64,000 nt of DNA. Source: Candidatus Kaiserbacteria bacterium. GTDB lineage: Bacteria > Patescibacteriota > Minisyncoccia > Phycocordibacterales > UBA2100. The DNA lies in NCBI GenBank assembly GCA_016217925.1, contig JACRFK010000003.1, positions 271,656-335,655 of the forward strand, in the 5' to 3' direction. The notes under the pieces were generated by a model that saw only the letters and a list, made by a program, of their open reading frames with translations, was not told where the DNA came from and searched no databases. Both the position numbers and the translations under genes were made by a program. Below, one piece after another: positions 4,894 to 50,947 of this stretch (the stretch's first letter is position 1; every line of letters begins with the position of its first letter).

Positions 4894-5775
4894 TCAATCG
4901 TCAAGGAGACCTAGACGATAAATATCAAAAGAATTCTCGCCCTCGAACATGTCGGAAGGATTCGGGAGGTAGATGCGGCGGCGGGATATCTCGGTGGTTG
5001 CGTCGTTGATGAGCCGGTGAAAGATCTCGAATTCCTCCGAGACGGTTGTGTAGTCGATGATGTAGCGGCGCATTTGCGACGAGCCGTCGGCGTTCTTCCT
5101 TTTCTTGCATTCTTGCACGATAAACCTGCGCACCTCTTTGCCGTACTTTTGTTTGACCGTGTAGTAATTGAATATAGCTTGCATGACGAACAGGGTCTTC
5201 TGCCCGCGGCCCTTGCTGAAGGTGTCCACGAACTTGTGGTCCACGATGTCGAGCGCCCCCGGCTGCAGGCGTGATTCGACGACGAGGTCCGAAACTGCCT
5301 TGATGGGAAGCGGCAGGCCCTCGACATGCGCGAGGGCGACCACCTCGACGCCGAGCACTTTGTGCTTGGGCGCTCGCGCGAGGTAGAACTGAATCGCCTG
5401 CAGATAGTCACGCTCCATGTGAGCACGCTTTTCTTTTTGTGCGCGACGCGACTTTGCTTTGCCGAAATTAATCTCAAAATCCGCAACGTTGCGTAGGTAT
5501 TCGAGCCCCAGCTCCACCGAGCCTTCTTTTCCTCCGGGGGAGGATCCACCTCCGGCGGACCCTATCCCGCCATAATAGTGCTGAAGCGCCACATGCGCTG
5601 CACGACCAACAAGAGAAGAGGGATTGGCGGGTGTATCGTAGACTTTTTCGACGTAGCGCTTGTACCACGCGAGCGGATTGCGCAAAAATGCCATGAGCGA
5701 AGAATGGCTCCAGTGCTGTATGGGCAATGCCGTCTTGAGGCGGGCTTTCTTCTTCATGTGATTTTGCGAAATCAT
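4894..5775 (-). CDS. PD-(D/E)xK nuclease family protein (Cas4/RecB-like fold) carrying the in-frame mini-element
   Basis: N-terminal HWSHSSLMAFLRNPLAWYKRY and a D..D.K block (GALDIVDHKF) typical of PD-(D/E)xK nucleases. Contains GSAGGGSSPGGKEGS, encoded by the element at 5527-5560. Confidence 0.5.
   Translation of the reverse strand: MISQNHMKKKARLKTALPIQHWSHSSLMAFLRNPLAWYKRYVEKVYDTPANPSSLVGRAAHVALQHYYGGIGSAGGGSSPGGKEGSVELGLEYLRNVADFEINFGKAKSRRAQKEKRAHMERDYLQAIQFYLARAPKHKVLGVEVVALAHVEGLPLPIKAVSDLVVESRLQPGALDIVDHKFVDTFSKGRGQKTLFVMQAIFNYYTVKQKYGKEVRRFIVQECKKRKNADGSSQMRRYIIDYTTVSEEFEIFHRLINDATTEISRRRIYLPNPSDMFEGENSFDIYRLGLLDD
5527..5560 (+). repeat. Palindromic mini-element, family A copy (variant with GGATCCACC)
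   Basis: ttttcctccgggggaggatccacctccggcggac; in-frame within the nuclease gene. Confidence 0.7.
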
Positions 5776-5824
5776 GCCGCGTAATCGTCTATTAAAACGC
5801 GGCCTTATAGTATATACTGGACCG

Positions 5825-5944
5825 ATGGCAAAACGAGCAAGTCAGGATATTAAGAACAAAAAGTCGCGTTCGCGAAAGACGAAGAAACGCCTCGCAGCCA
5901 AGCGGGCTATGCTCGCCGCCCGCAAGGCAAAGAAGCGCCGTTAA
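5825..5944 (+). CDS. Possible very basic small protein (39 aa), not in the ORF track
   Basis: ATG..TAA ORF encoding MAKRASQDIKNKKSRSRKTKKRLAAKRAMLAARKAKKRR. Preceded by TATAGT/TATACT -10-like sequence. Composition resembles ribosomal-type basic proteins, but it is not assignable. Confidence 0.3.
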   Translation: MAKRASQDIKNKKSRSRKTKKRLAAKRAMLAARKAKKRR

Positions 5945-5960
5945 CAGAGCGGCGTTTTTC

Positions 5961-5993
5961 TTTGGACAAACACGGGGCAAGAAGGTAGCATTC
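5961..5993 (+). promoter_or_regulatory. Promoter-like motif TTTGGACAAA-N13-GGTAGCAT, 6 nt before the ATG of the 5998 gene
   Basis: The same bipartite motif recurs at 7771-7803, 8261-8291 and 8810-8840, and partially at 6813 and 7660. Confidence 0.4.
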
Positions 5994-5997
5994 GGCG

Positions 5998-6840
5998 ATG
6001 AAAGGAGAGCCGTCCGTTTTACGAAATTCCGGGAAGGCGGAGCTCAGTGAACGGTGGGAGCGGAATTTAGAAGTGGTCAACGAATGCATGGCCGCCGCAT
6101 CTAGCGTATTTGAATCCACCATTCGTACAAAGGGCTTCGACGACACGGTCCGGGATAGGGGTTTTTTGACGGAGGTTTGGAGCCACGGTGAGAAGCGGGA
6201 AGCGCTCGCTGAAGTACTGTTCGGCCTGCGACCGGAAAAGAACATCGGGGCCCTGCAAGCGACAATCAATGGTAAAAGGATCCTCGTCGTCGGCGGTGGC
6301 GCCTCCATGGACGACCTCCTGTCCGATAACCGGTTCGCGCCCGCTCTTTTGCTAAACGTCGACCCCTTTTTGGTCGAAGAAAAACCGGCGCGGGGAGCGG
6401 CAGGCTATTACCGCTCTTTGCCGCTCGATGCCGCATCGGCCGACTTTTTACAGGCCCTTCAGGCCGGGGGGCATGATACATTCGATGAGATATGGGCGAC
6501 GTGGAGCGTCCCCCATTATTGCAAGACACCCGACGAAGTTGCCCGGTACTTTGCGAACATGTTCAAAGCACTGGAGCCGGGCGGCACTCTGCGTATTTGC
6601 CCGGTCACGTTCGTCGTAGACCCGATGCCGCCAATCGTTCGGACTGCGGTTGTCGCGGAGCTTGCATCAGCGCTGTCCGCGAGCTTGAGGACGCTCGCAC
6701 AAATGCCCAATGTGGAAATGTCGCGGCACGACAACACGCTTCCCGACGGTAGAATTCTGCCGGAACTTTCCACGCTTATCATTCACAAAACTGCCTTTGG
6801 AAACGATCGACATTTGGACAAAGCCGGAGCGGGGGTATGA
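5998..6840 (+). CDS. Hypothetical protein; possible class I SAM-dependent methyltransferase fold
   Basis: ILVVGGGASMDD (glycine-rich motif-I-like) and EPGGTLRI (post-I-like). Weak assignment. Confidence 0.35.
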   Translation: MKGEPSVLRNSGKAELSERWERNLEVVNECMAAASSVFESTIRTKGFDDTVRDRGFLTEVWSHGEKREALAEVLFGLRPEKNIGALQATINGKRILVVGGGASMDDLLSDNRFAPALLLNVDPFLVEEKPARGAAGYYRSLPLDAASADFLQALQAGGHDTFDEIWATWSVPHYCKTPDEVARYFANMFKALEPGGTLRICPVTFVVDPMPPIVRTAVVAELASALSASLRTLAQMPNVEMSRHDNTLPDGRILPELSTLIIHKTAFGNDRHLDKAGAGV

Positions 6841-26539: not shown

Positions 26540-26925
26540 CATAACTTGCCCCGTTAGATAATCAGATAATATTTGGCTAAGAGTCCAAAACTTGCACACC
26601 CCGAATAGTTTTCCCAGCAGCGTTAGATAGTCCGTATCTAACTGGGGTGTCGCGACACTCTAACAAACATTGACCCTCGACGCAATCTCTGTTTGACTGC
26701 TGTGGGAACCGGAGGGAGGTGAACCCAAATGAGTCCATTGACCTTGGCTCTGCTGCTGACGCCCATCCCGGCGGCCTTGCAGGCTTTCGGCTGGCTGTGA
26801 GCCAACGCGGCTGTCCGTACCAATTGCGGACAGCCGTCGTCTTTCATTTTGCAACCCGCTCCGCCTCTTCGAGTTTGACCCCGATGGAAAGCTTCGCTTC
26901 CAACGGGGCAGGCCGACAACAACGA

Positions 26926-33457: not shown

Positions 33458-36400
33458 ATGAGTGCGCGCGAATTCGTCCATTTGCATACTCACTCGCACT
33501 ATTCGCTCCTCGAAGCACTGCCCAAAATCCCCGAGCTTGTCGCTGCGGCTGCCAAAGATGGCCAGACAGCGCTTGCGCTCACCGACAACGGCAACCTCTA
33601 CGGCGCGATAGATTTCTACAAAGAGTGTAAGGACAATAGCGTGAAGCCGATTATCGGCGTCGATTTCTATGTCGCCCCGCGTACCCGCGCGCAAAAGGAG
33701 CATCGCATCGATGAACACACCTCGCGACTCGTGCTTTTGGCGAAGAACGAAACGGGGTATCGCAACCTGATGCAGCTTGTCTCGCGCTCGCACCTCGAAG
33801 GCTTTTATTACCGCCCGCGCATAGACCGCGAACTCATCGAAGCGCACCGCGAAGGACTCGTCGCGATACTTCCCTCTTTTGGCGGCGAACACGCCAAGCA
33901 CCTTCGCGAACACAATGCCGGGAAAGCGCGGGAGTGCGTGGATTGGCACAAAAAAATATATGGCGATGACTTGTTCCTGGAAATAACCCGTCACCCGGAG
34001 ATAGACGGACACGAGGGTCAGATGCAGGAGATTATTTCGCTCGCGCGCGGGGCCGGTGTCCCGCTTGTGGCAGCGCACGACACGTACTATCTGAAGAAGG
34101 AAGACGCGCTCGCGCGCGAGCTGGTGCGCAAAATCCGGAGCGCCGGCGTACTGAATCGCGACTTTGAGCAGGGCGCCCCCGATTTCTCATTCATGCCGCG
34201 CGCGCAGATGGAAGAGTCTTTCAAGGATATTCCGGAGGCACTTGAAAATAGCGCGCGCATTGCCGAGAGATGCGAGCTGGAGCTGAAGCTAGGGCTCTGG
34301 GTCTTCCCCGATTTTCCCATTCCCGCCGGAAGTAGCGCAAATGACGAGTTGCGAGCGCTCGCGCAGGCAGGATTCAAGGAGCGCGGCGTCGCCGAGACCT
34401 CCGAGAACAAAGAGCGCGTTGGCTATGAGCTTTCCATAATCGGAAGCAAGGGGTACTCGCCGTATTTTCTCGTCGTTGCGGACCTCTTGCGCCACGCACG
34501 CGAGAAGGGAATTCTCACCAATACTAGAGGCAGCGCGGCGGGCTCTCTCGTCTCGTACCTCTCCGGCATCACGACGGTAAACCCCATCGAATATCAACTC
34601 CCCTTCGAGCGATTTTTGAATCCCGAGCGACCGAGCCCGCCCGATATCGACATGGACCTCGCCGACAACCGCCGCGACGAGCTCATCGCGTATGTGAGGG
34701 AAAAATACGGGGAAGAAAAAGTGGCGCAGATAGGCACTTTCGGCACCATGATGGCGCGCGCGGCCGTGCGCGACGTTTCGCGCGCGCTCGGACATCCCTA
34801 CAGCCTCGGCGACACGATTGCCAAGCTCATTCCATTCGGCAAGCAGGGATTCCCCGTGACTATTGCGGGAGCTTTGGAGGAAGTGCCCGAGCTCGCGCAG
34901 CTGTATAAGAAAGACGCGGATGCGCGCGAAGTTCTCGATCTCGCGCAAAAAGTCGAAGGCAATGCGCGCCACGTCGGCGTCCACGCCGCGGGAGTCGTTA
35001 TTGCGCCGACCGCCGTCACCGACTACTCGCCTATTCAAATAGACCCCAAGGGCAATCACATCATCACGCAGTACGACATGTACGCGATTGAAGAAGCGGG
35101 GCTTCTGAAATTCGATTTCCTCGGACTTACCAACCTCTCGGTCCTTGCCGACGCGGTCGCGCGCGTGCGCGAGCGCTTGCACGTAGACATTGATCTCGAC
35201 AAGCTCCCGCTCGATGACACAAAGACTTTCGAAATGCTCTCACGCGGCGAGACGCTCGGAGTATTTCAACTCGCAGGCGGCGGCATGACGGCCTACCTCG
35301 TCGACCTAAAGCCGACCGCCATCCACGACATCAACGCGATGGTCGCGCTCTACCGCCCGGGCCCGATGGCTTTCATCCCCGCATACATCGAACGCAAAAA
35401 AGATCCGAAGCTCGTGAAATACCTCGACCCGCGTATGGAGATTATTCTCAAGAATTCCTACGGCGTCATTACCTATCAGGACGACGTGCTGGAGATTGCT
35501 ATCAAGATAGCCGGATACTCGTGGCTCGAGGCCGATAAATTCAGGAAAGCGATGGGGAAGAAGATACCGGCGGAAATGAAAGCGCAGAAAGAAAAGTTCA
35601 CCAAAGGCTGTGTGGCGGGCGGCATGAAGAAAGAGGCCGTACAGCAGTTGTGGGAACAGATAGAAACATTTGCCGCATACGGCTTCAACAAAGCGCACGC
35701 CGCTTCTTACGGCAACTTGGCGTATAAAACGGCTTACATGAAGGCTAATTTCCCTGTCGACTATATGGCGGCGGTGCTCACTGCGGACGCCGGCGACGTC
35801 GAAAAGATTTCGGAGGTCGTCGCCGAGTGCAAACGCATGGGTATCAATGTATTGCCGCCGTCGGTCAGTGAGAGTTACGGCAATTTTACCGTCGTAGATG
35901 AAAAAAATATTCGCTTTGGTCTGTATTCGATAAAGAACTTCGGCACGGGTGTCGGAGATTCCATCATCGCCGCAAGGAAAGAAGGAGGACCATTTAAGGA
36001 CATCGCCGATTTTCTCTCCCGCATCCTGGACCCCGTTAGAGGCGACGCCTCTAACGGGGCGGGCAAGAATCTCAACAAAAAATCCCTGGAATCTCTCATC
36101 CAGTGCGGCGCGTTTGACGACATGAGGCTCTCCCGCGGCGAGCTCATGGAGAACATCGAGACTCTTCTCACCTTCCACCGCGAGCATCTTAGTTCACCGA
36201 AAGACCAAAGCTCACTCTTCGGTACGATGAGCGCCCCGCGTCTGTCGCTCTCACTGCAACGCGCAAAGCCCGTCGCGCTCGAGACGCTCTTGGGATGGGA
36301 AAAAGAATTGCTCGGCCTCTATATTTCCGGACATCCGCTCGACAAACACAAAGCGAAATTCGCCGATACAAAAAAGAGCATCAAATACGCAAAAGAACAT

Positions 36401-36652
36401 CTGAAGGGCGTGGAGACCGTCATCGCGGGGTTTGTCGAGAGCGCCCGCATCAACCAGACGAAGAACGGAGAAAAGATGGGGTTCCTCAAGCTCGCTGATT
36501 TTTCTGACTCCATCGAGGCCGTAGTCTTCCCACGGACCTTCAAAGAATGCGAATCTATCATCACCCCCGGCTCCTGTGTCGCGTTCAAAGGCAAAATCTC
36601 GGACAGGAACGGGGAATCTAGTTTTGTTGTAGAGCGTGCTAAAGCACTGTGA
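33458..36652 (+). CDS. dnaE: DNA polymerase III alpha subunit carrying an in-frame perfect hairpin
   Basis: PHP domain HLHTHSHYSLLEA, polymerase core, OB-fold. Hairpin-encoded DPVRGDASNGAG at 36031-36059. Confidence 0.9.
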   Translation: MSAREFVHLHTHSHYSLLEALPKIPELVAAAAKDGQTALALTDNGNLYGAIDFYKECKDNSVKPIIGVDFYVAPRTRAQKEHRIDEHTSRLVLLAKNETGYRNLMQLVSRSHLEGFYYRPRIDRELIEAHREGLVAILPSFGGEHAKHLREHNAGKARECVDWHKKIYGDDLFLEITRHPEIDGHEGQMQEIISLARGAGVPLVAAHDTYYLKKEDALARELVRKIRSAGVLNRDFEQGAPDFSFMPRAQMEESFKDIPEALENSARIAERCELELKLGLWVFPDFPIPAGSSANDELRALAQAGFKERGVAETSENKERVGYELSIIGSKGYSPYFLVVADLLRHAREKGILTNTRGSAAGSLVSYLSGITTVNPIEYQLPFERFLNPERPSPPDIDMDLADNRRDELIAYVREKYGEEKVAQIGTFGTMMARAAVRDVSRALGHPYSLGDTIAKLIPFGKQGFPVTIAGALEEVPELAQLYKKDADAREVLDLAQKVEGNARHVGVHAAGVVIAPTAVTDYSPIQIDPKGNHIITQYDMYAIEEAGLLKFDFLGLTNLSVLADAVARVRERLHVDIDLDKLPLDDTKTFEMLSRGETLGVFQLAGGGMTAYLVDLKPTAIHDINAMVALYRPGPMAFIPAYIERKKDPKLVKYLDPRMEIILKNSYGVITYQDDVLEIAIKIAGYSWLEADKFRKAMGKKIPAEMKAQKEKFTKGCVAGGMKKEAVQQLWEQIETFAAYGFNKAHAASYGNLAYKTAYMKANFPVDYMAAVLTADAGDVEKISEVVAECKRMGINVLPPSVSESYGNFTVVDEKNIRFGLYSIKNFGTGVGDSIIAARKEGGPFKDIADFLSRILDPVRGDASNGAGKNLNKKSLESLIQCGAFDDMRLSRGELMENIETLLTFHREHLSSPKDQSSLFGTMSAPRLSLSLQRAKPVALETLLGWEKELLGLYISGHPLDKHKAKFADTKKSIKYAKEHLKGVETVIAGFVESARINQTKNGEKMGFLKLADFSDSIEAVVFPRTFKECESIITPGSCVAFKGKISDRNGESSFVVERAKAL
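36031..36059. repeat. Perfect hairpin CCCCGTTAGAGGC-GAC-GCCTCTAACGGGG (family B) inside dnaE
   Basis: 13-bp stem, 3-nt loop. Same arms as the 61637/61742 pair. Confidence 0.7.
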
Positions 36653-36659
36653 GTGGATT

Positions 36660-36890
36660 GACACCGGAGGGCTGGAGCGCTAAGATTAGCCGTGTGAGGG
36701 ATTGCTCTGGCCACCAACCGGAGTCCCGCCCTTTCTTTAGAAAGAGCGGGAGCGATAGCCTAACCTGACAGAAAGAGTGTCCCGCCCTTTCCGGAGAAAG
36801 AGCGGGAAAACTAGGTGGAACCGCGGTTTAGTGAGATCGCCCTAGTGAGTGTACGAGATTCTCGTGCGTTCACTCGGGCGCTTTTTATTA
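36660..36890 (+). promoter_or_regulatory. T-box riboswitch-like leader of thrS
   Basis: AAACTAGGTGGAACCGCGG at 36808-36826 matches the T-box consensus AATTAGGGTGGNACCGCGG. Downstream terminator-like helix CGCCCTAGTG..CACTCGGGCG + TTTTTATT (36838-36888). Two near-identical upstream hairpins CCCGCCCTTTC..GAAAGAGCGGG. Candidate specifier ACC/ACA at 36764-36770. Confidence 0.5.
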
Positions 36891-36910
36891 TCCGGCGTAT
36901 TTGTATCTCT

Positions 36911-38155
36911 ATGGCAGACGAACAACACAATTCGAACGAACGAGATCATAAGAAACTCGGCCGCGAGCTCGACCTCTTCACCTTTTCAGACACGGTGGGC
37001 AAAGGACTCCCCCTGTGGACTCCCAAGGGTTCTGTCATTCGCCGCGAACTCGAACGCTTCATCGTTGACGAAGAGATCCGCCGCGGCTACTTGCACGTCT
37101 ACACGCCGGATATTGCCAAGCTCGATCTATACCGCAAATCCGGCCACTACCCGCACTACAAGGATTCAATGTACGCGCCCATCGTCATCGACGACGAAGA
37201 ATACATGCTTCGCCCGATGACATGCCCGCACCACTTCGAGCTCTACCTCGATAAGCCGCATAGCTACCGCGAATTGCCGATACGCATCGCCGAGCTCGCC
37301 AGGCTTTATCGCTATGAGCAATCGGGCGAATTGATGGGCCTTCAGCGTGTACGGACGTTCTGCCTCGCAGACGCGCACATCATCTGCGTCAGTGAGGAGC
37401 AGGCGATTGAAGAGGTGTCGAAAGCGCTCGATCTCATCGTCGATGTCGCCCGTGTCCTCGGCCTCAAACAGGGAGAGCACTATCGTTTTCTTCTCTCACT
37501 CGGTGACCGCACGAACACCGAGAAATACTATAAAAATGACGCGGCGTGGGAGAAGGGCGAGTCGCTTCTGCGAGGGCTCATGCAAAAGCGCGGAGAGGAA
37601 TTCGAAGAGGCGAAGGGCGAGGCCGCCTTTTACGGACCCAAGATTGACGTCCAGATGAAGAATGTGAACGGCAAAGAAGACACGGCCTTCACAGTACAAT
37701 ACGACTTCTGCATGCCGGACAAATTTGACCTTACCTATGTCGGAGAGGACGGCAAACCTCATCGCGCATTCGTGGTGCACCGCTCTTCTATCGGCGCCAT
37801 TGAGCGTATCGTCGCCTTTCTTATCGAACACTACTCCGGCAACTTCCCGCTCTGGCTTTCGCCGGTGCAGGCAAAGATATTGCCTATTTCGGAGAAGCAC
37901 GCGGCATATGCCCAAGAGATCGCAGAACAATTCCGTGCAGCCGATATCCGTATCGAGATAAGCGCCGATGATTCGCTCGGCAAACGTATCCGCTCCGCAA
38001 AGATGGAGAAAGTCCCGTACGTCCTCGTCGTCGGGGATGCGGAAGTGGAAGCAAAGACGGCGACCCTCGAAGGTCGAGCGGGGAAGATCGGCGCACTTCC
38101 GGTCGCCGACATCATCGCAAAATTGAAAGAAGAGATACGAACTCGCGCTCTCTAA
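36911..38155 (+). CDS. thrS: Threonyl-tRNA synthetase, catalytic + anticodon-binding domains only (no N-terminal TGS/editing domains)
   Basis: Class II motifs (YMLRPMTCPHH, FCLADAHIIC, GPKIDVQM...HRSSIGAIERI). Starts at MADEQHNSNERDHKKLGRELDLF. 414 aa. Confidence 0.85.
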   Translation: MADEQHNSNERDHKKLGRELDLFTFSDTVGKGLPLWTPKGSVIRRELERFIVDEEIRRGYLHVYTPDIAKLDLYRKSGHYPHYKDSMYAPIVIDDEEYMLRPMTCPHHFELYLDKPHSYRELPIRIAELARLYRYEQSGELMGLQRVRTFCLADAHIICVSEEQAIEEVSKALDLIVDVARVLGLKQGEHYRFLLSLGDRTNTEKYYKNDAAWEKGESLLRGLMQKRGEEFEEAKGEAAFYGPKIDVQMKNVNGKEDTAFTVQYDFCMPDKFDLTYVGEDGKPHRAFVVHRSSIGAIERIVAFLIEHYSGNFPLWLSPVQAKILPISEKHAAYAQEIAEQFRAADIRIEISADDSLGKRIRSAKMEKVPYVLVVGDAEVEAKTATLEGRAGKIGALPVADIIAKLKEEIRTRAL

Positions 38156-38222: not shown

Positions 38223-39635
38223 TTAGGTGCGAGTGATAATGATGCGCGGTGCCTCACCCTCTTTCGAGTGCATGACCACCATCGAGTCCATCGTTGATTT
38301 GGCCGTCGGCGCGACCGGAAGATTCTCCAGCGCGTCTATCTGGATTGGGCTCGGCGTCATCGTTTCGAGAGGAGCCTCCTCAACTTTCGTTTCGACAGGC
38401 GCCGGCACCGTGGCTTCGTGCATCGTCACTTTGCGTGAACCGAGCATCGAACCTACGAGGGTCATTGCACCTCCCTTGTAGTAGACGACGAGGTAGGCAC
38501 CGGCTATCGCGAAGGAGATGAGCGAGAGCCAGTAGATAGCGTTGCCGAAGGGTCCTGCATCGAAGCCCGTGTACGGGATCTGCGAGAGCGAGACGTAGGA
38601 GCCCTGGACCGTGACATACGTGCTGCAGGTATTCGTGCCGCCGTAGCCCGAGACCGTGAGTGTGTAGGTCTTGGAGACATTCGGGCGCACCGCGAGCGAG
38701 CCGTTGGTGGATACCACGCCGATGCCATCAGAGAGCCAAGCGCTCGTGGCACCGCTTGAAGACCACGTGAGGTACGCAGCCTGTCCATTCACTATCGAGC
38801 TCGGAGAAGCCGTGATGGTGCAGTACGCGTTGCTGTAGGTCGGGTACGTCGGATAAATCGGATACGTGGGGTACGTCGGGTACACAGGGTAGGTCGGGTA
38901 GACCGGCTGTTGCTGGTAGACGTACTGTATCGGGTACGTGACGCCTGTGTACACGACAGGAGTGACCGGAGCCGAGTTTACGTTCGTGTTGACGTTGTTG
39001 TTATTGTTCGTGTTCACGATGTTAATCGGACCTCCACCCTGTTGCTGTTGCTGCTGTTGCTGTTGCTGAACCGGGCGCTGTTGCTGAGGAGCAGGATAGC
39101 TCGGGTACGAGGGAGCGTAAGAGGTCGACGGAGCGCGGAAGGAGAACGGCATACTCGGAGTAGGTTTGTAGTTCGGCTGCGAGTAGCTCTGAGTGTCGTA
39201 CGAGCGTTCGGAATACGCTACACCATCTTCGTAGATGTAGTCACAATCGCACTCGTTGTCCCACGTAGTACCTTCGTAGTTCCACGTTGGGTTTTCATCC
39301 CACGTAGTACCTTCGTAGTTCCACGTTGGGTTTTCATCCCACGTAGTTCCTTCGTAGTTCCATGTCGGATTTTGATCCCAAGTAGTACCTTCGTAGTTCC
39401 ACGTCGGAGAATCCGCATAACCAAGGTACCCACCGTTGGTGTCACCACCGGCGTCCCAAGTAGTGCCGTCGTAGCTCCATGTCGGCGTGTCACCACCGGA
39501 GTCCCACGTAGTGCCTTCGTAGTTCCACTCCTGTGCGAAGGCAGACGTAGGGATTGCGGCAAATGCGCCAAAAGCGAGCACCGCCACAGCCAGAAAAAAG
39601 ACAGAAACTGAACTTACTTTTGATGCATTTGTCAT
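38223..39635 (-). CDS. Secreted/surface repetitive protein (signal peptide; PTWNYEGTTWD repeats; polyQ/polyN; YPTYP repeats; Ig-like domain; C-terminal TM)
   Basis: Signal peptide MTNASKVSSVSVFFLAVAVLAFGAFAAIPTSAFA. 39-nt DNA tandem repeats at 39240-39480. IPYTG (LPXTG-like) precedes the C-terminal TM helix. Confidence 0.6.
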   Translation of the reverse strand: MTNASKVSSVSVFFLAVAVLAFGAFAAIPTSAFAQEWNYEGTTWDSGGDTPTWSYDGTTWDAGGDTNGGYLGYADSPTWNYEGTTWDQNPTWNYEGTTWDENPTWNYEGTTWDENPTWNYEGTTWDNECDCDYIYEDGVAYSERSYDTQSYSQPNYKPTPSMPFSFRAPSTSYAPSYPSYPAPQQQRPVQQQQQQQQQQGGGPINIVNTNNNNNVNTNVNSAPVTPVVYTGVTYPIQYVYQQQPVYPTYPVYPTYPTYPIYPTYPTYSNAYCTITASPSSIVNGQAAYLTWSSSGATSAWLSDGIGVVSTNGSLAVRPNVSKTYTLTVSGYGGTNTCSTYVTVQGSYVSLSQIPYTGFDAGPFGNAIYWLSLISFAIAGAYLVVYYKGGAMTLVGSMLGSRKVTMHEATVPAPVETKVEEAPLETMTPSPIQIDALENLPVAPTAKSTMDSMVVMHSKEGEAPRIIITRT

Positions 39636-39881
39636 AATTTTATGATTTCCTAAAAACCCTGATTTATAAAGCTATTAAACCGATAATTTGTTAAGCTGGG
39701 GTATTATATCAGGTGTATCAGCATTGTCAAGTCCCCTCTTAGAGGCAGCTGTCGGGTGCGGACGGCGGCAAAAAAGCCGAACGTCCGCACCCCTTGTTCC
39801 CTCGCGGCAGGTCATCGAGACCGGCTCGCAGCCTTTCTCGGAAGCGGTACGACGCTGCCATCGAGACGCCTCATGGGGACG

Positions 39882-40214
39882 TCACAGTTGAAGTGCACAG
39901 GCGTGACGCCCGGGGGCCATGGCGCTTCGCGACGACGTGGCTTGTGCGGTTCCACCCAGCCCGTCCGCTCGGACCCATTTACCGACGGACAATGCATCGT
40001 CTTGAACAGCCGGTTGACGGGGCACCAGTTTGCCGGGAGGAAAGCCCCGCACCGTCAAGACGTTCCCAAAGGCGCCGCATACTTTGACGACACCCTGAGC
40101 GTCCGTGACAGGCACAGCGTCCCCAAGCGGGCAACGTCCTGCTGCTGAGGCAGGAGTCTGAAAGATCATCATTCCCGCCATCAGCGACGGCAGGACTAGG
40201 AAACGAATACGCAT
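39882..40214 (-). CDS. Small secreted hypothetical protein
   Basis: N-terminal signal-like MRIRFLVLPSLMAGMMIFQTPASA. Confidence 0.3.
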   Translation of the reverse strand: MRIRFLVLPSLMAGMMIFQTPASAAGRCPLGDAVPVTDAQGVVKVCGAFGNVLTVRGFPPGKLVPRQPAVQDDALSVGKWVRADGLGGTAQATSSRSAMAPGRHACALQL

Positions 40215-50871: not shown

Positions 50872-50944
50872 GAGCCGCTTCCCAGACTCGAACTGGGGAC
50901 CTTCTCTTTACAAAAGAGTTGCTCTACCAACTGAGCTAAAGCGG
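50872..50944 (-). tRNA. tRNA-Thr (anticodon UGU), no encoded CCA, discriminator U73
   Basis: Manual fold: acceptor GCCGCTT/AAGCGGC; D-arm GCTC-AGTTGGTA-GAGC; anticodon stem CTCT/AGAG with loop TTTGTAA; variable loop AGGTC; T-arm CCCAG-TTCGAGT-CTGGG. Confidence 0.6.
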
Positions 50945-50947
50945 CGC

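Follow-up and report, generated by a model that had tools for sequence, protein, structure and literature searches.

The present analysis deals with the leader of thrS, the gene for threonyl-tRNA synthetase (ThrRS), in a stretch of 64 kb of DNA, which as a whole is called the window in the following. The leader is situated between dnaE (33458-36652) and thrS (ATG at 36911, stop at 38155). With a probability of roughly 85% the region from about 36693 to 36889 is, or recently was, a transcriptional switch that senses tRNA-Thr. Very probably it represents a threonine-specific transcriptional T-box of divergent architecture with an ultrashort Stem I. This reading is based on helices which are supported by covariation, on the correspondence between codon and gene, on the overlap of terminator and antiterminator, and on the match of the discriminator to a curated model. 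The T-box is the standard textbook example of an mRNA reading a tRNA.

A Thr-specific antiterminator/terminator leader of the T-box type had already been proposed for this gene in an earlier note. The T-box sequence at 36808-36826, the U-run and the terminator are indeed present where the note had placed them, and the discriminator matches the T-box family RF00230.

The ThrRS encoded in the window is 100% identical to a database ThrRS of Candidatus Kaiserbacteria, because of which the window can be taken to originate from a genome of the Candidate Phyla Radiation (CPR)/Patescibacteria. The Pfam matches of this 414-aa protein are restricted to the class II catalytic core and the anticodon-binding domain.

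A sigma-70-like promoter, TTGACA-17-TAAGAT, is the sole promoter-like site in the region 36300-37200. It is located directly upstream of the leader, just after dnaE, and the same promoter arrangement is visible in the leaders of relatives. Transcription would start at about 36692-36695, at the beginning of helix P1. Control of thrS would be transcriptional, because the leader encodes no leader peptide (there is no ATG 5' of 36911) and no structure that occludes the Shine-Dalgarno sequence or ribosome-binding site (RBS) was found in the leader of the window.

Predicted decoding domain and specifier codon

For comparison 80 thrS loci from related genomes were fetched by means of their ThrRS. The motif GGTGGNACC[AG]CG was identified upstream of thrS in 12 of these loci. 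The same design is found in these 12 relatives, in four closely related contigs and in at least 120 metagenomic contigs. The 12 genome leaders share a 5' domain of the form UCRGA-GAUUG-[6-bp stem, loop YUACCAA]-[variable hairpin]-[small hairpin]-C-UAA-UCYGA.

An alignment of 55 columns was made from 110 distinct leaders including that of the window; the sequences were cut at fixed offsets from invariant motifs and no structure was fitted. In Stem I 97.9% of the cells are paired and six of six pairs are compensatory. P1 is paired in 89.8% of the cells, with five of six pairs changed on both sides, and its core (alignment columns 4-8 with 48-52) comprises the pair types CG/UA/UG/AU and AU/UA/GC. 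For the 5' domain overall 89.2% of the cells are paired, compared with 29-41% in slid registers. The covariation score amounts to 0.635, which was not reached by any of 500 shuffles (0.212 +/- 0.010), and the slid registers gave 0.055-0.130. The column pair G13-C44, which corresponds to G36704-C36760 in the window, is pairable in all 110 leaders (GC 107, GU 2, CG 1). We infer a tertiary role of the GAUU/UAA junction.

From the 5' domains of 109 relatives, with the window left out, we built the covariance model R1. It matches the window at 36692-36772 with 40.1 bits (E = 7.5e-9), and this is the sole significant match in the 64 kb. A weak match on the reverse strand (26659-26695, E = 1.9) was put down to chance. 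Among the 80 genome loci R1 matches only those bearing a T-box. If the domain of the window is folded in isolation, the minimum free energy (MFE) structure is identical to the centroid (-31.9 kcal/mol, z = -3.05), and its helices are P1, Stem I, Stem II and the small hairpin, with no others. For the longer segment 36690-36895 the MFE structure is this same modular fold, Stem I included. The earlier note would have been refuted by a missing T-box match together with the lack of a foldable stem I with specifier loop; such a stem can be folded, so that only half of this was found, namely the missing full-length match described below.

The Stem II slot of the window is occupied by a hairpin without an internal loop of the S-turn type. 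In relatives an unrelated hairpin of variable length is found in this slot, and sometimes the slot is empty. The following small hairpin has the form SC-(GNRA or other 4 nt)-GS in relatives and is followed by C-UAAUC, in which the C is near-invariant and the UAA invariant. Pairing of this hairpin in a fixed register is only 61%, because the register shifts between members. It may resemble a Stem IIA plus F-box, and it is called 'IIA-like' only in this paper. Two further interactions were considered and dropped. Pairing of the GGCU beside the loop with AGCC, and of GCU with AGC, as a pseudoknot or an extension of P1, was looked for by eye and is not conserved in the AT-rich members. A K-turn or k-junction formed by P1-GAU-UG / C-UAA-P1' lacks the tandem G-A pairs, as judged by sequence only.

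The specifier had been sought by the earlier note at 36764-36770. The ACC and ACA triplets it reported are present (36763-36770), but they belong to the 3' strand of P1 and not to a stem-I specifier. The actual specifier is the ACC at 36713-36715, which a short hairpin exposes in its 7-nt apical loop. The loop occurs in the variants CCACCAA, CUACGAA, CCACGAA, UUACCAC, CUACCAU and UCACCAA, and only the ACN frame stays synonymous. The metagenomic contigs were matched by the pattern GAGATTG-N6-YY-NNN-A-N{20,50}-TAATC-N{20,50}-GGTGGNACCRCG, in which the loop triplet is free. The triplet is ACC in 119 and ACG in one of the 120 metagenomic matches listed. In the same 120 matches the variable base of the bulge is A in 117 and G in three cases, both of which can pair with U73. 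Among the matches listed the first open reading frame (ORF) downstream aligns to ThrRS in at least 84, and ten contigs end before any ORF. Of the 26 other first ORFs ten were re-examined. Seven of these belong to ThrRS, as genes or fragments, and the remaining three are small upstream ORFs, for one of which a following thrS could be shown. Wherever it is readable, the downstream gene is thrS. An ACG specifier was also observed in the leaders of L001, L006 and L181, and the ACG leader of L001/L202 has in addition the bulge UGGG. This suggests a switch to another tRNA-Thr isoacceptor (CGU) in the ACG leaders and, for the UGGG of L001/L202, a G-U pair to U73.

The expected cognate tRNA of an ACC specifier would be tRNA-Thr(GGU). 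The earlier note had named the tRNA-Thr(UGU) encoded in the window as the matching tRNA. This tRNA is present with U73, and the bulge base A fits this discriminator base; beyond its U73 it is not informative. It is probably not the isoacceptor which reads ACC, because of a C-U mismatch at the third position. The tRNA-Thr(UGU) of the relatives L118 and L191 also carries U73, so that three of three tRNA-Thr genes seen are UGU with U73.

Discriminator, antiterminator and terminator

The discriminator of T-boxes is defined as RRRxG-Stem III-AA plus A1, bulge and A2 (PMC7583486), and all these parts could be identified in the leader of the window. The RRRxG motif is present in 56 of the 63 relatives possessing Stem III. 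An AT-rich clade of 47 of the 110 leaders has no Stem III hairpin (e.g. L039:1342-1440, L076, L077, L098, L108) and retains only the purine-rich linker (…AAAGAACAAAG-UUG-GGUGG); Stem III is described in the literature as indispensable for the discriminator.

The earlier note had suggested a search with RF00230. No match was obtained over the full length, but the discriminator half alone is matched. If 36765-36895 is searched by itself, RF00230 aligns with 36765-36847 (28.8 bits, E = 3.4e-5, model positions 146-219). The alignment takes in the AGUG that precedes Stem III, Stem III itself, the AA, A1, GGUGGNACC, A2 and the 3' strand of A1. In 12 of 12 T-box-bearing genome relatives the model matches at the same position upstream of thrS with 20-33 bits. 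In the best-scoring of them (L078) only the discriminator half aligns credibly, and the model positions 1-145 are forced onto promoter DNA with low posterior probability. After these sub-threshold matches and the discriminator-only match, the absence of an Rfam match was dropped as evidence against a T-box. Because RF00230 matches the discriminator half only, the 3' half of the leader is canonical, the 5' half not.

The note had pointed out that CTAGG can alternatively pair with CCTAG in the terminator arm, and this pairing proved to be a real A1 helix. In the window the possible partners are CUAGG (36811-15) with CCUAG (36841-45), and GCG (36823-25) with CGC (36838-40); the bulge between them stays unpaired. 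Sequences of 55 distinct relatives were aligned solely on the invariant GGUGGNACCRCG and the first downstream CG[CU]CC. A1 is paired in 94.5% of the cells and four of four variable pairs are compensatory, as opposed to 28-47% pairing in slid registers; none of 500 shuffles scored as high.

A strong terminator, in which a hairpin with dG <= -10 kcal/mol (median -30.6) ends at a U-run, is found in 104 of the 110 leaders; a first terminator detector was misled by T-runs in AT-rich stems and was replaced by another one. In 90 of the 110 leaders the 5' arm of the terminator begins in the 3' strand of the antiterminator. A general promoter and terminator scan of the region detected only the inner part of the terminator of the window. 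Its TTTTT is located at 36882-86, and the ATG of thrS follows 21 nt past TTTTTATT. The arrangement of terminator and U-run thus is as the earlier note had described it, but not the distance, for which 25 nt had been given. The terminator conformer of the window has a folding energy of -53.0 kcal/mol, the antiterminator-constrained one -46.9 kcal/mol, and A1 is predicted to form in the nascent RNA up to 36858. Because the terminator conformer is the more stable one, the default state would be OFF according to this model, and the ON state would need extra stabilisation, as in T-boxes.

The switch is proposed to work as follows. Transcription would begin at the sigma-70-like promoter just after dnaE. 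The first ~78 nt would fold into a compact decoding domain, in which the long-range helix P1 surrounds three helical elements: a hairpin resembling an anticodon arm, which shows ACC followed by A in its 7-nt loop, the variable Stem II hairpin, and the small hairpin followed by C-UAA. The anticodon of tRNA-Thr, expected to be GGU, would pair with the ACC. The purine-rich linker and Stem III would lead to the canonical discriminator. If the tRNA is uncharged, its 3' UCCA could pair with the UGGA of the bulge, A1/A2 would be stabilised and transcription would read through into thrS. In all other cases the terminator (36838-36880 plus U-run), being the more stable structure, would form and transcription would stop 25 nt before the start codon. 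In this scheme the functional steps, among them tRNA binding, charge sensing and the transcription start, are predictions based on sequence, covariation and homology. The features of the leader are summarized in Table 1.

Table 1. Predicted features of the thrS leader and related features in the window
Feature	Position	Strand	Remarks
Putative sigma-70-like promoter TTGACA-17 nt-TAAGAT	36658-36686	+	10/12 matches
P1, 5' strand UGUGAGG	36693-36699	+	pairs with 36764-36770; G-G mismatch 36696/36767
Junction GAUUG	36700-36704	+	G-A-U-U invariant in 110/110 leaders
Ultrashort Stem I	36705-36723	+	6-bp stem 36705-10/36718-23; 7-nt apical loop CCACCAA 36711-17
Putative specifier codon ACC (Thr) and following A	36713-36716	+	ACC 36713-15, invariant A36716; in apical loop of Stem I
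Stem II slot, twin hairpin 1 (UCCCGCCCUUUC-UUUA-GAAAGAGCGGGA)	36724-36751	+	near-perfect hairpin
Small Stem IIA-like hairpin GC-GAUA-GC and C-UAA	36752-36763	+	hairpin 36752-59; conserved C-UAA 36760-63
P1, 3' strand CCUGACA	36764-36770	+	covariation and MFE fold; contains the ACC/ACA triplets
Purine-rich linker	36771-36779	+	ends with GAGUG (36775-79), fits the RRRxG motif 5' of Stem III; RF00230 aligns AGuG
Stem III (twin hairpin 2), then AAA (36808-10)	36780-36807	+	RF00230 aligns Stem III and the following AA
T-box sequence AAACTAGGTGGAACCGCGG (AAACUAGGUGGAACCGCGG)	36808-36826	+	sequence, covariation, RF00230 alignment
A1, 5' strand	36810/11-36815	+	within the T-box sequence
7-nt bulge UGGAACC	36816-36822	+	UGGA would pair with 3' UCCA of the tRNA
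A2, 5' strand	36823-36826	+	within the T-box sequence
Antiterminator, 3' strands	36837-36846	+	A2 3' 36837/38-40, A1 3' 36841-45/46; same bases start the 5' arm of the terminator
Predicted intrinsic terminator	36838-36889	+	hairpin 36838-36880 (about -28 kcal/mol); U-run 36882-86 within TTTTTATT
thrS	36911-38155	+	presumed regulated gene; 414-aa ThrRS without TGS or editing domains
tRNA-Thr(UGU)	50872-50945	-	U73, no encoded CCA; only tRNA in the window

Distribution and alternative explanations

All members which are named by organism belong to the Parcubacteria group (Kaiserbacteria, Adlerbacteria, Taylorbacteria, 'Paceibacterota' and a record labelled Nomurabacteria). Most of the metagenomic ThrRS behind this class of leaders comprise 580-610 aa and start with the editing domain. 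The leader is therefore not tied to the truncated ThrRS, and its occurrence in front of a ThrRS without editing domain, which the earlier note had regarded as noteworthy, is incidental. The long-form ThrRS (578-599 aa; L104, L128, L097, L109 and others) begin at an editing-domain motif (…RHTLAHLLA…) and apparently lack an N-terminal TGS domain, and some close relatives of the short ThrRS of the window (P0080, P0090, P0091) contain a tRNA_SAD domain.

Some of the loci show additional genes. In the metagenomic contig L147 two copies of the Thr T-box are found ~1 kb apart (567-670 and about 1490-1620) with an ORF of 167 aa between them. L153 (about 5660-6040) and L177 contain an ORF of 126-129 aa (MDLKKYQK…ATWGLGVSGEAGD…) after the T-box terminator. 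In L153 this ORF separates the terminator from thrS, a hint at a small operon under T-box control; the sequence of L177 stops before a thrS becomes visible.

The two hairpins at 36725-36750 and 36781-36806 are a peculiarity of the window. They are identical in all 22 stem positions, have 4-nt loops and fill the slots of Stem II and Stem III. Only these two copies exist in the 64 kb, where none would be expected by chance. Both slots contain unrelated sequences in all relatives, including the nearest leader L206/L207, whose ThrRS is 87% identical and which shares the GGGAAUUG/CCUAACC variant with the window. The near-identity of the hairpins had been recognized before, when they were considered as elements foreign to a standard T-box and possibly as a small repeat. 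They do occupy the slots of regular T-box elements, and a dispersed repeat could be dismissed with two copies in 64 kb and none in relatives. The twin hairpins are thus private to the lineage of the window and perhaps arose by conversion between the slots.

Several observations weigh against a tRNA-Thr-sensing T-box in the window. In a search of the whole window with Rfam 15 at the gathering threshold no T-box match was found. The region 36500-37000 gave no T-box match at E <= 10 either, and no family matched the 5' domain under these settings. The gathering score of RF00230, 93 bits, is reached neither by the window nor by its relatives (20-33 bits). The leader has neither the long Stem I with its elbow platform nor, in recognisable form, the K-turn and the S-turn Stem II, all of which are held to be important for transcriptional T-boxes (PMC7583486). 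One G-G mismatch interrupts P1 of the window. In place of the G-U wobble that is described as the steric sensor of aminoacylation, A2 begins with a G-C pair; of the distinct sequences of the class 33 have GC and 17 have GU here. No gene for tRNA-Thr(GGU) was found in the window or in the fetched loci; the tRNA search of 60 loci revealed two tRNA-Thr(UGU) only. The twin hairpins permit a swapped long-range fold, whose predicted -85.0 kcal/mol equals the sum of the two modular domains, but folding during transcription should favour the local hairpins. Furthermore, the leader is missing in 67 of the 80 related genomes, and in relatives whose ThrRS is 88-90% identical and which share the dnaE-thrS synteny, the two genes are separated by only 11 nt and there is no leader.

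The last point can be seen by comparing L201 and L204 (660-703 in both), which have the 11-nt gap, with L202, L206 and the window (36653-36910), which have a leader of ~235-260 nt; the ThrRS of these loci are 87-90% identical. Because near-identical dnaE-thrS loci differ in its presence, the leader must have been lost or gained recently and repeatedly, and evolution can dispense with it.

This variation among close relatives also fits the explanation that the T-box class is real but the copy in the window is decaying or already non-functional. In that case the repeated hairpin would have overwritten two variable stems, P1 would have been weakened, and close relatives would have deleted the leader. 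The G-G mismatch in P1, the isoenergetic mis-fold allowed by the twin hairpins and the R1 score of 40 bits, compared with 52-66 bits in most members, could be understood in this way. We nevertheless regard decay as improbable. The positions invariant in the class are intact in the window, i.e. GAUU, the ACC-A loop, C-UAA, RRRxG, AA, UGGAACC and the A1/A2 complementarity. Promoter and terminator are strong, and the modular fold is the MFE structure for 36690-36895. The variant which the window has in common with its nearest relative L206 argues for a maintained lineage variant.

It is very unlikely that the leader is an ordinary class I T-box of the Firmicutes type which merely scores poorly, with the long Stem I, K-turn and platform hidden in 36690-36780. 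The discriminator half is canonical, and the AGRGA-like 5' sequence may recall the conserved purine-rich boxes of Stem I. However, only ~78 nt precede the linker, and according to the covariation these are taken up by P1, the 19-nt hairpin of Stem I, Stem II and the small hairpin. The RF00230 positions 1-145 are without a counterpart, and in L078 they are forced onto promoter DNA. There is no tandem G-A K-turn sequence after GAU, and all 12 genome relatives stay at 20-33 bits, below the gathering score of 93.

Equally hard to believe is a protein-binding operator as in Escherichia coli thrS, in which ThrRS would bind hairpins that mimic the anticodon arm of tRNA-Thr and so control expression, and the T-box-like 3' part would be vestigial: the gene is thrS, Stem I resembles an anticodon arm (7-nt loop, 6-bp stem) and two identical hairpins could suit a dimeric protein, but the loop presents the codon ACC/ACG, complementary to a Thr anticodon, and not an anticodon-like GGU/UGU/CGU, the twin hairpins, with loops of 4 nt, occur in this genome only, no structure occludes the Shine-Dalgarno sequence, and the conservation and covariation of bulge, A1 and terminator in at least 110 leaders would be left unexplained by a vestige.

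An ORF of 470 aa (38223-39635, reverse strand) without Pfam match is convergent with thrS. Upstream of it (39700-39735) a consensus promoter TTGACA-17-TATAAT and an A/T-rich leader are found. A second T-box core on the reverse strand (39945-39956, GGTGGAACCGCA, 11/12 matches) is located upstream of this promoter and has no terminator context. It was rejected as a chance match, since about two such matches are expected by chance.

Relation to known T-boxes

With the canonical T-boxes (RF00230; Bacillus subtilis tyrS, thrS and glyQS) the leader class shares RRRxG-Stem III-AA, A1, the 7-nt bulge UGGNACC and A2, an antiterminator which is mutually exclusive with an intrinsic terminator, a codon that fits the regulated aminoacyl-tRNA synthetase gene and a bulge base N that probably fits the discriminator base of the tRNA. 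ACC is a common specifier among Thr T-boxes, as expected from the 'C rule' (PMC7583486). In contrast to the canonical T-boxes the class has no long Stem I, no distal interdigitated T-loop elbow platform, no specifier internal loop, no K-turn sequence and no S-turn Stem II in recognisable form. Instead, the codon is presented in a 7-nt apical loop, and the domain is closed by the long-range P1. The class is found in Parcubacteria/CPR and not in Firmicutes.

The most similar decoding modules are those of the actinobacterial ileS T-boxes (Mycobacterium tuberculosis, Nocardia farcinica; 'class II' of TBDB). These also have a short Stem I without elbow platform, a small hairpin with the specifier at or close to its apical loop and a compact decoding module of about 80-100 nt, followed by a linker and a canonical discriminator. 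However, they are translational and act by an RBS sequestrator, whereas the leader class uses intrinsic terminators. Their Stem I is closed on itself by a K-turn, their long Stem II clamps the codon-anticodon helix by an S-turn, and they form a IIA/B pseudoknot that organises the domain. In the leader class no K-turn sequence is present (GAU-UG opposite C-UAA), Stem II is short, unconserved and sometimes absent, and the bases that follow the small hairpin are engaged in P1 with the very 5' end of the RNA, with no evident local pseudoknot. The amino acid is Thr and not Ile, and the phylum is a different one. An ultrashort Stem I is characteristic of the translational actinobacterial T-boxes (PMC7583486). 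It has been described so far only for these ileS T-boxes, and here it appears to be combined with a terminator.

The glyQS T-boxes resemble the leader class in being transcriptional and in having no Stem II/S-turn domain. Their independence of this domain was attributed to the G+C-rich codon-anticodon duplex (PMC7583486), and ACC:GGU also has two G-C pairs. They differ in that they keep a long Stem I equipped with K-turn and elbow platform, and the platform was described as essential for transcriptional T-boxes (PMC7583486). The operator of E. coli thrS is likewise situated upstream of thrS and has hairpins resembling anticodon arms. It binds a protein, has anticodon-like loops and blocks the ribosome, in contrast to the codon-like loop, T-box bulge and terminator of the leader class.

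In a survey from 2008 T-boxes were reported from Firmicutes, Actinobacteria, Chloroflexi, Deinococcus-Thermus and a few Proteobacteria. The short-Stem-I model of TBDB was applied to Actinobacteria and to T-boxes with truncated Stem I that had been detected by class I (RF00230). A full-text search of the literature for T-box together with CPR, Patescibacteria or Parcubacteria revealed no report; its coverage was incomplete, so that an earlier description is possible. By its mechanism and its discriminator the leader would be a T-box, and it would lie outside both RF00230 as curated and the actinobacterial class II. We see somewhat better than an even chance that such leaders form a third architectural class, ancestral and widespread in Parcubacteria (CPR), in which a hairpin resembling an anticodon arm decodes the tRNA within a multi-helix junction closed by P1, without elbow platform, K-turn or S-turn Stem II, and which acts co-transcriptionally on a terminator.

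The finding would extend T-box regulation to the CPR, in which to our knowledge almost no gene regulation has been characterised. Annotation based on Rfam overlooks these leaders systematically. They could be recovered with a discriminator-only model or with R1, and analogues for other amino acids might be found in the same way. The presence or absence of the leader at near-identical dnaE-thrS loci offers a handle on how such leaders are lost. According to the prevailing view, which arose from structural work, a transcriptional T-box depends on a long Stem I to grip the tRNA elbow, and a short Stem I belongs to slower translational switches with S-turn Stem II and pseudoknot. Neither of these two compensating elements is present in the leader class in a recognisable form. 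If the third class is real, it contradicts the view that transcriptional T-boxes need the distal platform of Stem I for fast tRNA capture, and the invariant GAUU/UAA junction or another element would have to stabilise the 3-bp codon-anticodon helix in a new way. The leader class would offer a natural minimal decoding module of ~78 nt, and it may serve as a test of how little RNA is sufficient to recognise a tRNA during transcription.

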